Origin: Escherichia phage vB_EcoM_SA20RB | Strand: one strand, 5' to 3' | DNA length: 64,000 nt | Sequence record: OL960581 | Part shown: positions 15,346-61,456 of the stretch, in pieces | Numbering within the stretch: the stretch's first letter is position 1 | How the letters are laid out: each line of letters opens with the position of its first letter | Translations under genes and position numbers: made by a program | The notes under the pieces: model-generated | Databases searched by the model: none | What the model saw: only the letters and a program-made list of their open reading frames with translations | What the model was told of the DNA's origin: nothing

Positions 15346-15349
15346 CAAT

Positions 15350-15378
15350 GGGGACCTTTCGGTCCCCATATTTTTATT
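15350..15378 (+). terminator. terminator hairpin GGGGACC-TTTC-GGTCCCC after gene 54
   Basis: 7-bp GC stem followed by ATATTTTTATTT. Confidence 0.7.
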
Positions 15379-15664
15379 TACGGAATGAAATAAAAGCAGC
15401 AACTGAAGCAACTAAACTGTCTTCAATATAAACTTCAATTTTTACCGGAGCTTCTGACTCAAATTTACCTGTTACTACACCTTGGAAAATGCTTTCAGTC
15501 TGTTCTGGCTTTGAAAAATTTTCAGAAGGAAAAATTCCGAACTTTTTATCTGTTCCAAAAATTTTGATAAATTCATCGTAAACCGCTTCATTAAAAGCAT
15601 TATCAGCAGGAATAACGCCTTCAACTACGAGTTCTTGACCTAAAAAGCGCAAAGAAGATTTCAT
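15374..15664 (-). CDS. hypothetical protein (alt-distal ORF)
   Basis: 96-aa ORF; SD AGGA; early promoter immediately upstream. Confidence 0.6.
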   Translation of the reverse strand: MKSSLRFLGQELVVEGVIPADNAFNEAVYDEFIKIFGTDKKFGIFPSENFSKPEQTESIFQGVVTGKFESEAPVKIEVYIEDSLVASVAAFISFRK

Positions 15665-15695
15665 TTTGTGTTCCTCATGTTATATCAGTAAGTCT

Positions 15696-15725
15696 ACTAT
15701 AACACAACATGAGGGACTTGTAAAC
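15696..15725 (-). promoter_or_regulatory. T4-type early promoter
   Basis: Minus strand reads GTTTACA, 17 nt, TATAGT. Confidence 0.6.
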
Positions 15726-17782
15726 TACATCTTGAACTTTTTAGACATTCCGTTGATGTTAACCAAAGAAGCTAAGATTTGAGAAACTTCGTTTTCCTCT
15801 TCTTTTGATTCTTCTACAAGGAATTGGTTAAATCCAGTCATTGGACGAACTTCACCAGTTTCCATCAGATGATCGCCATCATATACCGATTCTTCTAATT
15901 GTTCAGAAGGAGGAACGATTGTGCCTTCGATTAGATACTTGTTATAAGCAGTTTCTTTCATCATGTACGTGCTTACTTTATTAATCTTCAACAAAATTCC
16001 ACGCGGTAAAATAACTTCAGCTTCTGATGGAAATCCTGATAAATGACCTGGAACGATAACTTTAATTCGCTCAGCTCCTTTTATTACCATACCTACGCTA
16101 GTTTCAGCATCTTCATTAGCATATGCAGAATGACTACCCATATGCATTAAATCTTCAGCATCAACGGAACCTTCTCCTTCACCAGAAAATACTGCACCGG
16201 AATCATCTAGAGCCATATAGTTTTTACCATGCTCACCGAAGATATTTGGTTTAAGCGATGTTGATACGAAGTTCTTGAAATAGAACATTTTATTTTCAAT
16301 ATTATGACGTAAAGTTTTAAAGGTAACTTCTTGTCCACGGTAAAGTGTAGTTCCTGGAGGAAGAACTGATCCTTTGGCAAAGGCAGAATCCATTGTCTCG
16401 ATGTGTTTAATAGCTCGTTCCATGTATTCTTCACGGGTAGAATCTGGTTTACCCAAGAGGAACGAGTTCATTTCAACATATGAATCTGCACAATAATCTT
16501 CAATTACATCAGACTCAGCCTGAGTCAGTCCTTTTGGAGTTACTTCGGTGCTTGCGTATTCATATGCCTGAGCAGCAGATTCATTAATCAATTTATAAAT
16601 GCTATTCATGACAAATTGAATAATAGCTACTTTTTCGTCTGGCGTGGCTTTAGAACCTTTAACTAAATCATTGATAATTTTCTTAATAACATCAAAGCTA
16701 TTAGAAATATTAATGTCAGCGAGATCGCTTAAAATTTTATCAGTTTTATAATCAAAAAATTCTTTATTCTTTAAATATTCTTTAGAACCTTGATATGTTA
16801 TATCGCTCTGCAGCTTGATAGATGGATCACGTAAACGTGCATGGGCCAATGCAATATGATTTCGGAAGCTTTCTAGTTCATAATCGTTAGATTTAAAACG
16901 AGAAGCACTTCTCATACCACCGATAGCTCCTTTGCCGAAGTTTGAACCAATCTGAATAACACCAGAGTTCATTGGTCCTTCTGCTTTATATACCGGAACT
17001 TTAGATTCAAACTCTTGATATTTCTTGGCAGCGAAGCTATCACCCTGAAGTGAAGCATCGACAGTAGAATATTGAGCTTGTGCTGCTAATCGACGACTAA
17101 TTTTAGTTTTCTGAATAACAGCTTGATCCGTGCGCTTATCATTTTCTAAAGCAATAGAAGCAGCAACAGCAACAGCTTTAGGAACAGCATTACCTGTTTT
17201 AACATCTACATAAACATCACCAACCTTTGATTCAACTTTTGTGAATAACTCAGTTGAAATAGGAGGTACACCTGGAATGTCTTCTAAATTGGCATTTTTA
17301 CGGTAAACCATAATATATGCATACTTTTTATCATAATCCCAAATTTCCTTTAAAAGAACATATCGACCTGCTCCTTTAGTACGTACTAAACGGTCAGCAA
17401 TAACTTGCATTTGACGAGCAGCGCCATTTGTTTTACTTTTTAGTACGCGGAATAGGCATGCGTCAATTTTATACTGTTTCATTGTTTGAAGAGCAGTATC
17501 AAAAACCGCATTAATGACACCAATTGGATTTCCACCCAAGTTTTTAAGTTTAACGAGCGATAGTTTCTCATTGACACCTATCATTACGATATGCATCATT
17601 TTATCGCCTGGCTTAACGTTTTTATTTGTATCACCGCCAGAGGTGTATGTACAAAATCTAAATCCAGGAAGCACACTTTCTTCGCCGGCTTGAATAGCAA
17701 AAATTTGAGGTATTTTATGCTTAGGATTTAAGTTAACAACCGGCGCCGAAGCGCCGTCAAATAATTCTGTAATAAGTTCCAT
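15725..17782 (-). CDS. Alt-family ADP-ribosyltransferase paralogue (possibly the ORF called alt.-2 in T4-type genomes)
   Basis: 685 aa; N-terminus MELITELFD... shared with the adjacent Alt; C-terminal region with an R...STS...E ART-like signature. Confidence 0.8.
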   Translation of the reverse strand: MELITELFDGASAPVVNLNPKHKIPQIFAIQAGEESVLPGFRFCTYTSGGDTNKNVKPGDKMMHIVMIGVNEKLSLVKLKNLGGNPIGVINAVFDTALQTMKQYKIDACLFRVLKSKTNGAARQMQVIADRLVRTKGAGRYVLLKEIWDYDKKYAYIMVYRKNANLEDIPGVPPISTELFTKVESKVGDVYVDVKTGNAVPKAVAVAASIALENDKRTDQAVIQKTKISRRLAAQAQYSTVDASLQGDSFAAKKYQEFESKVPVYKAEGPMNSGVIQIGSNFGKGAIGGMRSASRFKSNDYELESFRNHIALAHARLRDPSIKLQSDITYQGSKEYLKNKEFFDYKTDKILSDLADINISNSFDVIKKIINDLVKGSKATPDEKVAIIQFVMNSIYKLINESAAQAYEYASTEVTPKGLTQAESDVIEDYCADSYVEMNSFLLGKPDSTREEYMERAIKHIETMDSAFAKGSVLPPGTTLYRGQEVTFKTLRHNIENKMFYFKNFVSTSLKPNIFGEHGKNYMALDDSGAVFSGEGEGSVDAEDLMHMGSHSAYANEDAETSVGMVIKGAERIKVIVPGHLSGFPSEAEVILPRGILLKINKVSTYMMKETAYNKYLIEGTIVPPSEQLEESVYDGDHLMETGEVRPMTGFNQFLVEESKEEENEVSQILASLVNINGMSKKFKM

Positions 17783-24320: not shown

Positions 24321-24653
24321 TTATTTTACTACTTTCCAATGTTGCATGTCAAGTTTACCAACTTTTTTCATCTTCTCAATTAAGCGTTCGGCACGTTGGC
24401 GGGCTGTAACATAATACCATTCACCCAATTCATTTTGTTCAATTTTTCCAACGATTACTGTATTCAATTCATAAATCCAACCAGTAAAGAAATTATGAAC
24501 TTGAATTGTAAAGGTGAAATCTGTTCCCATACCTTCTGTTGTTTCTACTTCAATAATATCACCTTCAACTGCCATTAAGAACCACATAGTTTCATCATAT
24601 TTACCATTGAAGCATTTAGTTTTAACTGTAGCGTTCAGATTAATCGTTTTCAT
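24321..24653 (-). CDS. hypothetical protein
   Basis: 110-aa ORF; early promoter upstream. Confidence 0.6.
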   Translation of the reverse strand: MKTINLNATVKTKCFNGKYDETMWFLMAVEGDIIEVETTEGMGTDFTFTIQVHNFFTGWIYELNTVIVGKIEQNELGEWYYVTARQRAERLIEKMKKVGKLDMQHWKVVK

Positions 24654-24680
24654 TTTATTCTCCTTTGTTTGTGTAAGATA

Positions 24681-24710
24681 ATACTATCACAAAGGAACTA
24701 TACTGTAAAC
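24681..24710 (-). promoter_or_regulatory. T4-type early promoter
   Basis: Minus strand reads GTTTACA, 17 nt, TAGTAT. Confidence 0.55.
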
Positions 24711-30599: not shown

Positions 30600-30949
30600 T
30601 TAGAAAGGTCCTGGATGTCTTCTGCGAACTTGTTGAAGGAGTTGTTGATTTGTTTTTCAACCAATCCTGGCTTATGAGCCACCACATCCGCCTTCTTTGC
30701 GTCTTTGCGCAGTTTTTCATTTTCACGCTCAATAGCAGCAATTGCCTCACGATTTTTATTATTCATCGCATCAATATAATTATACTGAATTCGCAAATTA
30801 TCTAATGCTAAAGCGTTTTCATTGGCCGTTTTTGTAATTTCTACAACAGACGTTTCTAATCTTTCAATTTTACTTTTTAAAATTAAAGAAGTTCCGCCCA
30901 ATGCAATTACAATTAATAGCAAGCCTGCTGTCGTATTACTTAATTGCAT
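30596..30949 (-). CDS. N-terminal TM plus coiled-coil protein, likely i-spanin (position of T4 pseT.3)
   Basis: 117 aa; hydrophobic N-terminal segment then a charged helical region; ATGA overlap with the lipoprotein ORF. Confidence 0.7.
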   Translation of the reverse strand: MQLSNTTAGLLLIVIALGGTSLILKSKIERLETSVVEITKTANENALALDNLRIQYNYIDAMNNKNREAIAAIERENEKLRKDAKKADVVAHKPGLVEKQINNSFNKFAEDIQDLSK

Positions 30950-31446
30950 AAAGTTTTAATAACCTCTATAATATCGTCTTGAGAAAGACCGTTAATTAAA
31001 ATATGATGTTCAGCAGGAGATTTAGAAATTTTAAAGCATGCCTCAACATCTTCTGCCATATCCGATGCGCTACGATTTGGATTACTGATTCCAAGACGAT
31101 GTTTTCCCGTCAAAGGATTAACGATGATGTAGCATTTACAATTATTGATATGAACATTAGGTTGAGTCTGATTAATGAACACATCACAATCATATTTCGC
31201 AAGCTGATTTTCTAAAAAGACTTTCATCTCCTCAACTGCATCAGGAAGCATATCACGGGCTTGCTCAAGACGACGATTTCGATATTCTTTAATGGTCGTT
31301 TTCCGCTTGACTTGCTTAGCTAAATCTTTCTTAAGATCGGTGATATATCCAACTCGACGATTTCCTTTAAATACAGAAATCCCATCTGTAGTATCACCGT
31401 ATGCTTCAACGACCATCTCAGTAGTAATAAGCTGCAAATCCATCAT
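30940..31446 (-). CDS. alc: Alc, inhibitor of host transcription on cytosine-containing DNA
   Basis: 168-aa ORF (167 from the second Met, as in T4); sequence recognised. Confidence 0.85.
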   Translation of the reverse strand: MMDLQLITTEMVVEAYGDTTDGISVFKGNRRVGYITDLKKDLAKQVKRKTTIKEYRNRRLEQARDMLPDAVEEMKVFLENQLAKYDCDVFINQTQPNVHINNCKCYIIVNPLTGKHRLGISNPNRSASDMAEDVEACFKISKSPAEHHILINGLSQDDIIEVIKTLCN

Positions 31447-31474
31447 AAAGTCCTCATGTTATGTCAGTAAAATT

Positions 31475-31504
31475 ACTATAACACAACACGAGGGACTTGT
31501 AAAC
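31475..31504 (-). promoter_or_regulatory. T4-type early promoter, near-identical to the copy at 15696-15725
   Basis: Minus strand reads GTTTACA, 17 nt, TATAGT; the spacer differs from the other copy at one position. Confidence 0.6.
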
Positions 31505-31507
31505 AGC

Positions 31508-33095
<1,588 letters not shown>

Positions 33096-40231: not shown

Positions 40232-40462
40232 TTATTGTTCAATCAATCCCATGTAAAATTCTGCGTCTTCAGAATCCATGCCGTCACAATACTCATTAGC
40301 CATAAAGCGGGTGAGGTCTTCAAGAGGACCTTCAATGACAATAGAAAAATTGCAATAATTGGGATCATCGTGAATACTTGTGATACTAAGTTCAGGATAA
40401 CGATTACGAATAATTTCTTCAATATATTCAAAATCAACGATGTCAATATCAACTTTAGCCAT
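40232..40462 (-). CDS. hypothetical acidic protein
   Basis: ORF track gives 40232..40483; the internal Met (MAKVDIDIV) is preceded by SD AAAGAGGAAA, so the shorter form is preferred. Confidence 0.5.
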
Positions 40463-40505
40463 ATTATTTTCCTCTTTAATCATCAGCAGTATTGCCGATA
40501 GTTGT

Positions 40506-40535
40506 ATAGTACCACGGAAGAACAGGGATGTAAAC
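40506..40535 (-). promoter_or_regulatory. T4-type early promoter
   Basis: Minus strand reads GTTTACA, 17 nt, TACTAT, with an AT-rich upstream element. Confidence 0.6.
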
Positions 40536-61298: not shown

Positions 61299-61398
61299 AG
61301 TAAGCGTTTAATATATCAATCATTAAAACGATTGGGAATATACTCAAAACTACTAGTATTATAACTACATTCCATATAGCTTTAACAATCTTTTTCAT
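61285..61398 (-). CDS. small membrane protein
   Basis: 37-aa form MKKIVKAIWNVVIILVVLSIFPIVLMIDILNAYFGFM with SD GGAGG; the 82-aa track ORF would run through the early promoter upstream. Confidence 0.45.
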   Translation of the reverse strand: MKKIVKAIWNVVIILVVLSIFPIVLMIDILNAYFGFM

Positions 61399-61426
61399 TT
61401 TCTGTTCCTCCGTAGTTGATAGGATA

Positions 61427-61456
61427 ATAATACCACAGAGGAACAGTCTTGTAAAC
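61427..61456 (-). promoter_or_regulatory. T4-type early promoter
   Basis: Minus strand reads GTTTACA, 17 nt, TATTAT. Confidence 0.55.

Follow-up and report, generated by a model that had tools for sequence, protein, structure and literature searches.

The question raised by this locus is why two early promoters of a T4-like phage, 15.8 kb apart and serving different genes, should resemble each other not only in their hexamers but throughout spacer and leader. The DNA analysed (hereafter the window) is a stretch of 64,000 nucleotides of Escherichia phage vB_EcoM_SA20RB (OL960581), a Tequatrovirus and close T4 relative, for which a 1-kb query around the copy A region returned 499 phage records at 90–99 % identity. 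A preliminary description had put the match between the two segments at about 48 of 54 positions and had it cover the −35, the spacer, the −10, and the leader. Pairwise alignment gives 49 identical positions out of 54 between copy A (15725..15672) and copy B (31504..31451), both on the minus strand, and the identity is indeed not confined to the hexamers but runs from the first G of GTTTACA to GAGGA. This 54-nt block breaks off sharply at both ends, and the flanks are unrelated. Written 5' to 3' on the minus strand, copy A reads GTTTACA-AGTCCCTCATGTTGTGT-TATAGT-AGACTTACTGATATAACATGAGGA and copy B GTTTACA-AGTCCCTCGTGTTGTGT-TATAGT-AATTTTACTGACATAACATGAGGA; the layout common to both comprises GTTTACA, a 17-nt spacer of the form AGTCCCTC(A/G)TGTTGTGT, TATAGT, and a 24-nt leader with ACATGAGGA at its end. 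The features of the two loci are listed below.

15670..15725, minus strand: cassette copy A, consisting of promoter, hairpin, and ribosome-binding site; the block in common with copy B is 15725..15672
15719..15725, minus strand: copy A −35, GTTTACA, which overlaps the alt stop codon TAG by its first G
15702..15718, minus strand: copy A spacer, AGTCCCTCATGTTGTGT, 17 nt, mostly the 5' arm of the hairpin (anti-Shine–Dalgarno); the TGT at its 3' end is the extended −10 TGn
15696..15701, minus strand: copy A −10, TATAGT, in the upper hairpin
15689, minus strand: predicted transcription start of copy A (from the consensus), an A 7 nt past the −10
15670..15690, minus strand: copy A hairpin 3' arm, containing the Shine–Dalgarno sequence GAGG at 15673-15676
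15374..15664, minus strand: alt.-3 (96 aa, Pfam DUF5498), the counterpart of T4 alt.-3 and the gene served by copy A
15725..17782, minus strand: alt, RNA polymerase ADP-ribosyltransferase, upstream of copy A; its transcripts would read through copy A
31448..31504, minus strand: cassette copy B, consisting of promoter, hairpin, and ribosome-binding site; the block in common with copy A is 31504..31451
31498..31504, minus strand: copy B −35, GTTTACA, 3 nt past the rnlA stop codon TAA
31481..31497, minus strand: copy B spacer, AGTCCCTCGTGTTGTGT, 17 nt, the 5' arm of the hairpin (anti-Shine–Dalgarno); its AAGTCC is complementary to GGACTT in the alc leader
31475..31480, minus strand: copy B −10 hexamer, TATAGT
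31468, minus strand: predicted transcription start of copy B (from the consensus)
31448..31469, minus strand: copy B hairpin 3' arm, containing the Shine–Dalgarno sequence GAGG at 31452-31455
30940..31446, minus strand: alc (Pfam ALC), inhibitor of host transcription and the gene served by copy B
31508..32668, minus strand: rnlA (gene 63), RNA ligase 1, upstream of copy B; its transcripts would read through copy B

The alt.-3 and alc proteins show a weak likeness at their N termini (ELVVEG vs EMVVEA).

Both copies fit the T4-type early σ70 promoter (GTTTACA, 17-nt spacer, TGT-TATAGT), scoring 10 out of 12 with TG before the −10, and an A-rich stretch lies upstream of the −35 in both cassettes. 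T4 itself presumably lists early promoters at alc as well as at alt.-3. The early “uber” promoters of T4 combine an UP element, the −35 GTTTAC, TGn, and the −10 (PMC2988021), and the two copies match this pattern including the A-rich upstream region. What the consensus leaves unexplained are the first 12–13 spacer bases and the leader, and it is precisely these parts that carry the pairing described below as well as the additional identity between copies A and B.

Chance similarity of the copies could be ruled out. A 31-nt pattern encompassing −35, spacer, and −10 with up to 3 mismatches found exactly copies A and B (0.00 expected from shuffles), spacer-only and leader-only pattern searches of the window likewise returned just these two loci, and when the window's 12 early promoters of the GTTTAC type were compared pairwise, the alc/alt.-3 pair (49/55) stood well apart from the runner-up pair (38/55) and the median (26.5). 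The claim that likeness among the remaining early promoters is limited to the hexamers does not hold in this form, as the promoters located at frd.3, motA, and ndd.6 resemble one another at 80–85 % over 73–128 nt, though none approaches the alc/alt.-3 pair. Another set of related cassettes occupies the 30.8 and ndd.4 positions. Homologous genes behind the repeat are ruled out as well, DUF5498 and ALC being unrelated Pfam families and the DNA flanks unalignable.

In T4, the alc and alt.-3 cassettes are both present and identical to each other at 54 of 55 positions, and a 69-nt cassette query found two match sites each in about 500 Tequatrovirus records. Both loci were read by sequence in seven genomes or samples, i. 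e., T4, the window, and five IMG/VR sets. (The IMG/VR searches with the alc and alt.-3 proteins returned close Tequatrovirus relatives only and are thus informative on strain variation, not on covariation.) Given the two sites in some 500 records and their confirmation in the seven sets, the duplication is older than the radiation of Tequatrovirus. Divergence between copies A and B (2–11 %) is of the same order as that among strains, and variants at one locus were not mirrored at the other locus of the same genome in any of the seven sets. There is therefore no sign of continuing homogenisation, and ongoing gene conversion between the copies is unsupported. Of the recent recombination that had been proposed for the pair, the copying itself finds support, in that an alc-type cassette appears to have replaced the alt.-3 promoter (see below), while “recent” has to be dropped for an event that predates the radiation of the genus.

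The suggestion of an additional shared regulatory feature is supported as well: the first 13 bases of the spacer, AGTCCCTCRTGTT, are the reverse complement of the part of the leader that includes the Shine–Dalgarno sequence, AACATGAGGA (followed by CT in alc), and the conserved spacer is accordingly the 5' arm of a predicted hairpin, the 3' arm of which is the Shine–Dalgarno region. This inverted repeat between spacer and leader does not figure in the preliminary description. RNA from the −35 to the ATG is predicted to fold into a hairpin of 17–23 bp with −21 to −27 kcal/mol in both copies, with the −10 hexamer and the predicted start situated in its upper part. In 81-nt contexts of both copies, taken from the window and from T4, the minimum free energy lay between −23 and −27 kcal/mol (z-scores between −4.4 and −5.5), a stability matched by 0 of 200 shuffles; the hairpin is furthermore retained in all strain variants (−15 to −26 kcal/mol). 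A known RNA family was rejected, since Rfam gave no family at gathering score anywhere in the window.

The significance of this fold lies in the difference between the two kinds of RNA that may carry the ribosome-binding site. In the read-through RNA, GAGG is paired in both the predicted minimum-energy and centroid structures, and opening the region from −15 to +3 around the start codon would cost 9–19.5 kcal/mol (about 19 for copies A and B). For RNA from the embedded promoter, the corresponding cost is only 0.7–4.6 kcal/mol (2–4 for copies A and B), compared to 3.5–7.4 kcal/mol for cassettes without a hairpin, including the alt.-3 orthologues from elsewhere. The predicted +1 falls beyond the whole 5' arm, so that the promoter's own transcript, which at copy A should begin with ACTGATATAACA, would be devoid of the masking strand.

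Evidence that the pairing as such is maintained comes from alc, for which the rnlA–alc junction was read in 16 further lineages (one genome each). Spacer-to-Shine–Dalgarno pairing was found in nine genera, namely Tequatro-, Gelderland-, Karam-, Jiaoda-, Braga-, Dhaka-, Winkler-, Kagamiyama-, and Kanagawavirus (again one genome each), in which 12–17 spacer bases pair with a Shine–Dalgarno-containing 3' arm that ends 4–8 nt before the ATG; in the eight genera other than Tequatrovirus, the anti-Shine–Dalgarno arm follows directly after GTTTACA. In most genera the −35 directly adjoins the stop codon of the preceding gene or overlaps with it (TAGTTTACA), and in several orthologues the Shine–Dalgarno sequence is GGAG. 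The arm sequences themselves differ between genera, for example, TCTCCGTTTAGTT with AACTAAACGGAGA, TCCTCATCAG with CTGATGAGGA, and AACCTCTCATTTT with AAAATGAGAGGTT. Spacer–leader duplexes nevertheless reach a mean of −17.9 kcal/mol with their own partner vs −9.6 kcal/mol across genera; in both directions, the own partner ranked first in 8 of 9 cases, and none of 100,000 permutations attained the observed mean. A covariance model was built from five alc orthologues and the remainder aligned to it. In the resulting alignment of 10 orthologues, 94.4 % of the cells are paired and 10 of 13 pairs have changed on both sides, compared to 69 ± 4 % (maximum 83 %) after whole-arm swaps between alc sequences; as the alignment was fitted to the model, these figures are biased towards structure. 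Plain MAFFT with RNAalifold on the 10 leaders, by contrast, yielded 9 pairs and −1.5 kcal/mol, a low result that is due to the arms shifting register between genera. Differing arms with kept spacer-to-Shine–Dalgarno pairing are covariation at alc.

The arrangement is not universal. Pairing of spacer and Shine–Dalgarno sequence is absent from Mosigvirus alc, which has a palindrome inside the spacer instead, and only weak in Marfavirus, while in Gaprivervirus an extra small ORF lies between rnlA and alc and the arrangement is not present (one genome each). At alc of a Providencia phage the hairpin is present with the Shine–Dalgarno sequence outside it, and in Acinetobacter, Aeromonas, and Cronobacter phages the alc arrangement is absent. 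It must therefore be dispensable. For the Jiaodavirus alc cassette, a second blastn match exists; it does not lie within KPN6 1-50000.

The strands of the repeat are not equivalent in Tequatrovirus, where the sense strand is stabler than the antisense strand via G–U pairs (−24.4 vs −15.4 kcal/mol; gap of 4–9 kcal/mol). Stems outside this genus have few G–U pairs, are nearly all Watson–Crick, and lack such asymmetry, so for those genera an RNA and a DNA reading are indistinguishable on this count. Long loops disfavour cruciform extrusion, and the 20–30 nt found here would be unfavourable in this respect.

At alt.-3, the picture across genera is different. Eight genera (Gapriver-, Dhaka-, Mosig-, Marfa-, Kanagawa-, Gelderland-, Kagamiyama-, and Jiaodavirus) carry a promoter of another type, in which GTTTAC is followed by a small palindrome within the spacer, for example, CCACAAGGATGTGG, and the leader reads ...CA(A)CATGAGGAA... 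and does not pair with the spacer by way of its Shine–Dalgarno sequence. The alc hairpin is found in other genera and the alt.-3 promoters there differ, which makes the cassette presumably ancestral at alc and secondary at alt.-3. Consistent with this direction, the outer arm AAGTCC complements GGACTT of alc, not GGAACA of alt.-3, and the native alt.-3 leader (ACATGAGGAAC...) takes over at the very point where the shared block stops. Most likely, a patch of about 55 bp comprising the alc cassette was copied onto alt.-3 in the ancestor of Tequatrovirus; GTTTACA and ACATGAGGA, as short stretches of homology, are the probable sites of the recombination. A reverse conversion in Mosigvirus, with an alt.-3-type promoter copied onto alc, is only suggestive. 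In T2 and in one metagenomic alt.-3 locus (L009), AGTCCCTCG has changed to AGTTCCTTA; the arm thereby becomes AGTTCCTTATGTT, which pairs without interruption with GAGGAAC of alt.-3 (−24 to −26 kcal/mol), and a C–A mismatch is removed. This suggests repair, in the T2 lineage, of a mismatch made by the transfer and thus selection for the pairing at alt.-3, too.

Taken at face value, these observations fit a cassette that joins an early promoter, an anti-Shine–Dalgarno spacer, and a leader with the Shine–Dalgarno sequence, and we regard it as reasonably probable, on the strength of the predicted structures and their covariation, that it ties the translation of alc and alt.-3 to their own promoter. 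Read-through RNA (from rnlA into alc and from alt into alt.-3) would hold both arms, fold, and bury the ribosome-binding site, and both genes would be poorly translated from such transcripts. RNA from the embedded promoter, in turn, would start in the loop or upper part of the hairpin, lack the 5' arm, and present an open ribosome-binding site, and probably only this RNA would be translated. Translation of alc and alt.-3 would hence be linked to an immediate-early promoter and, with it, to the opening minutes of infection, whatever transcription arrives from upstream. Mapped T4 middle promoters lie upstream of alc (PnrdA, PnrdB, and PI-TevIII) and of alt.-3 (P30; PMC2988021, Table 1), and read-through into both cassettes is therefore to be expected. 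With a spacer that masks the Shine–Dalgarno sequence, no protein factor would be needed to make translation depend on the promoter from which an RNA originates, and the prediction can be tested directly by a few point mutations at spacer positions that are not read by RNA polymerase. Against this reading, it is hard to see what the phage would gain from restricting the synthesis of Alc to the immediate-early phase. The point is of wider relevance as T4 is a founding model of gene regulation in which the confinement of early expression to the first minutes is only partly understood, with RegB accounting for some of it and early-promoter shut-off still awaiting an explanation.

The closest relatives in terms of function are the T4 genes e, soc, 49, and I-TevI, for which RNA initiated upstream folds into a helix over the Shine–Dalgarno sequence or AUG and an internal late promoter is present (PMC3014915). 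As in these cases, the promoters of alc and alt.-3 lie in or after the 5' arm and would give rise to a short RNA without this arm (with translation predicted in the case of alc and alt.-3), and related phages keep equivalent structures, as seen for alc. The differences are twofold. The 5' arm at alc and alt.-3 is the −35/−10 spacer itself, and the internal promoter is an early σ70 promoter and not the late promoter TATAAATA that delays translation of e, soc, 49, and I-TevI to the late phase; TATAAATA is absent from both cassettes, which resemble this class in function but fall outside the described set. With an early instead of a late internal promoter, the predicted outcome is inverted to immediate-early translation only, and the temporal direction would be opposite to the classic case of gene e. 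Outside phages, IS10 and IS50 are reportedly shielded from read-through into their transposase genes by fold-back inhibition, an effect attributed to work of Davis, Simons and Kleckner in 1985 and of Krebs and Reznikoff in 1986. The principle is alike, with transcripts from outside pairing their own upstream sequence with the ribosome-binding site and only RNA from the element's own promoter being translated, but these are transposable elements, not phage early genes, and there is no sequence relationship. The phage promoters are thus well studied, and the masking principle as well as the cassette concept (see below) are known already; our literature search found no earlier account of a hairpin at the alc or alt.-3 promoter and no description of an early promoter that uses its own spacer as anti-Shine–Dalgarno arm, as kept at alc in nine genera.

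The most serious alternative is provided by the PeSLs, mobile cassettes of T4-type phages that have been interpreted both as terminators or attenuators and as sites of recombination (PMC2839356; PMC4122927). Like the alc and alt.-3 cassettes, they are repeated intergenic units of 60–100 bp that lead from an upstream stop codon via an early promoter and stem-loop to a Shine–Dalgarno sequence and ATG, are common to unrelated genes, and occur at the boundaries of indels and gene replacements. The present cassettes occur in repeated copies, their −35 borders on the upstream stop codon, and their hairpin extends over spacer, −10, and +1. An indel boundary is found at alt.-3, too: 19 nt upstream of the −35 is the point from which the window is homologous to T4 (and to a subset of other phages), and T4 carries alt.-1 and alt.-2 there, the window neither. 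It is thus conceivable that the stem-loop mainly terminates or attenuates transcription from upstream, with the pairing of the Shine–Dalgarno sequence being incidental. Such a role has been proposed for the PeSLs of RB49 and phi1. In PeSLs, the stem-loop of an early promoter is situated between −35 and −10 or extends over the −10, and one PeSL stem-loop cut expression of a downstream lacZ about as much as rrnB T1 (PMC2839356). In the window itself, at the 30.7, cd.2, and frd.1 positions, the spacer pairs with the −10/+1 region and leaves the Shine–Dalgarno sequence untouched, and masking of the latter is therefore not the sole possible role of such hairpins; with leaders as short as 22–25 nt, a hairpin across −10 and +1 may furthermore reach the Shine–Dalgarno sequence partly by geometry. 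On the other hand, PeSL stem-loops are located upstream of, in, or just past the promoter, with the Shine–Dalgarno sequence as a separate 3' module (for the PST/T4 pair, the stem-loop is drawn just upstream), whereas at alc and alt.-3 the Shine–Dalgarno sequence is the 3' arm, and in alc it has stayed in this arm across nine genera despite the turnover of the arms. A classic intrinsic terminator is not supported, as scans for a stem with T-run were negative at both cassettes and no T-run follows either stem, although termination of a kind that needs no T-run may occur. Efficient termination would presumably also be costly, because the T4 annotation shows no obvious promoter between alc and pseT from which the downstream genes pseT.3 to pseT could be transcribed separately. 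An insulator with incidental pairing is thus a rather unlikely explanation in our view, with the qualification that insulation and masking of the ribosome-binding site are not mutually exclusive.

Considerably less probable is a primary role in RNA processing or coupling, in which the hairpin on read-through RNA would keep RegB or RNase E from cleaving the Shine–Dalgarno region, lend stability to the upstream message at its 3' end, or couple translation of alc to that of rnlA. Structure does guard GGAG sites against RegB (PMC3014915), and GGAG is the Shine–Dalgarno sequence of the several orthologues mentioned above, but that of Tequatrovirus is GAGG. As for coupling, the stop codon at or in the −35 lies 6–11 nt from the 5' arm, and a terminating ribosome might therefore open the base of the stem, which would also count against the proposed masking; judged from ribosome geometry, however, the stem starts 8–10 nt past the stop codon and outside the point of unwinding. 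RegB protection and translational coupling are possible as minor roles besides the proposed masking. Marginally weaker still, and in our estimate quite improbable, is a pure relic of recombination, in which a patch of gene conversion alone would account for the identity of the copies and the inverted repeat would be functionless. The unrelated flanks, the short motifs GTTTACA and ACATGAGGA that bound the block, and a divergence between copies similar to that between strains would all be accommodated, but not the alc hairpin that was kept in nine genera with compensatory changes, the mending of the alt.-3 mismatch in the T2 lineage, or the fold z-scores. A DNA-level element, be it a site for a dimeric protein (e. 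g., a factor for early-promoter shut-off) or a promoter-modulating cruciform, appears least credible of all, even though shut-off of T4 early promoters still lacks an explanation (PMC2988021, PMC3014915) and stems outside Tequatrovirus are equally stable on both strands, for the arms covary rather than stay constant, which speaks for structure and against a sequence-specific operator, and in Tequatrovirus the G–U pairs together with G/A and C/T polymorphisms keep the pairing in sense-strand RNA only.

Masking of the ribosome-binding site by the promoter spacer may conceivably extend beyond alc and alt.-3. Pairing of the spacer with the Shine–Dalgarno sequence was also found at the 30.8 position (24710) and the ndd.4 position (61456) and, in part, at the frd.3 position (40535). 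That such pairing is a general design of T4-like phages, and that a sizeable fraction of early genes is translated only from RNA of their own promoters, is a tentative proposal that we consider somewhat doubtful at present. If it were true as a general rule, it would help to explain the rapid shut-off of early protein synthesis and also why promoter, leader, and Shine–Dalgarno sequence travel as one cassette between unrelated genes in T4-like genomes. Across all 12 window promoters, own spacer–leader duplexes averaged −12.1 kcal/mol vs −7.2 kcal/mol for mismatched ones, a mean reached by 0 of 20,000 permutations; at the ndd.6 position, a palindrome resides inside the spacer.

Pairing between the -35/-10 spacer of an early promoter and the Shine-Dalgarno (SD) region downstream of it, which is the layout of the cassettes before alt.-3 and alc, also occurs at other early promoters of the window. 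These are named here by the corresponding T4 gene location and are given together with further hairpin-bearing promoters.

Early promoters with spacer-based pairing in the window
24651-24710, minus strand: 30.8 position, spacer pairs with its own SD region
61390-61456, minus strand: ndd.4 position, spacer pairs with its own SD region
40460-40535, minus strand: frd.3 position, only partial pairing of the spacer with its own SD region
24318 (G of GTTTAC), minus strand: 30.7 position, GTTTAC promoter with strong hairpin
28198 (G of GTTTAC), minus strand: cd.2 position, GTTTAC promoter with strong hairpin
39810 (G of GTTTAC), minus strand: frd.1 position, GTTTAC promoter with strong hairpin
62181, minus strand: ndd.6 position, CAC-AAGGA-n-GTG palindrome inside the spacer

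At the 30.8 position, the spacer TTCCTTTGT pairs with ACAAAGGAG of the SD region (-12 kcal/mol), and at the ndd.4 position CTGTTCCTCTGT pairs with ACGGAGGAACAG (-23 kcal/mol); a covariance model derived from the leaders of alc picks up both promoters as well. In the hairpins at the 30.7, cd.2, and frd.1 positions (-16 to -19 kcal/mol), the spacer is base-paired to the -10/+1 region and the SD stays unpaired, a layout similar to that of the promoter-early stem-loop (PeSL) cassettes of the RB49 type. A second recurring promoter type carries a small palindrome within the spacer, of the form CAC-AAGGA-n-GTG (e.g., TACCACAAGGACCGTGGTA), and is represented in the window at the ndd.6 position and, among the loci compared from other phages, at L025-L031, L033, and L039:27137; it is kept at alt.-3 in eight genera and is also present at alc in Mosigvirus. 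Extended similarity is seen among the minus-strand promoters at the frd.3 (40535), motA (58319), and ndd.6 (62181) positions, which are 80-85% alike over 73-128 nt, that is, far past the hexamers and including GTGGTACTATACAACTATCAAC, which spans -10 and +1.

A homology breakpoint precedes the -35 of alt.-3 by 19 nt (about 15744), and in a subset of phages the match to the query starts only there. In T4, a partial duplication of alt, comprising alt.-1 and alt.-2, separates alt from alt.-3, whereas in the window alt directly adjoins the alt.-3 promoter. At the cd.2 (28198) and ndd.6 (62181) positions, both on the minus strand, T4 homology stops about 60-70 nt past the -35, and the downstream ORFs (175 and 68 codons, respectively) are unlike the T4 genes found there; these are gene replacements immediately downstream of a conserved promoter cassette.

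In Shigella phage JK42 (Mosigvirus), a small ORF near ndd is preceded by a leader near-identical to the Tequatrovirus alt.-3 leader (TATAGTAGTCCTACTGAAACATGAGGAACACAAAATG), which makes this the third type of locus with such a leader; the spacer here differs from the Tequatrovirus alt.-3 spacer and pairs with the +1 region. The combination of an alt.-3-like leader with a different spacer suggests that leader and SD modules move between unrelated genes and between genera. In Jiaodavirus genomes (e.g., H223-H229), the alc cassette likewise has two blastn matches in each genome, the second of which does not lie within 1-50000 of KPN6.

The N-terminal coding stretches behind the two cassettes were compared by sequence alignment:

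15590-15664, minus strand: alt.-3
31370-31446, minus strand: alc

The short likeness between Alt.-3 and Alc (LGQELVVEGV versus TTEMVVEAYG; DNA GTnGTTGAAG) is probably due to chance.

Phage VR7 (Gaprivervirus; L015, 188-504) encodes an additional small ORF between rnlA and alc that is annotated as alc-like, preceded by a GC-rich hairpin with a T-rich stretch after it, overlapping a GTGTACA box; in a second hairpin, the SD of this ORF is paired with sequence downstream of the -10. In the window, the intergenic region where genes 54 and alt.-3 converge holds a GC-rich hairpin (ATGGGGACC...GGTCCCCAT, 15348-15369); this hairpin is terminator-like on both strands in a terminator scan, with a clear T-run (ATTTTTATTT) after the stem on the plus strand only.
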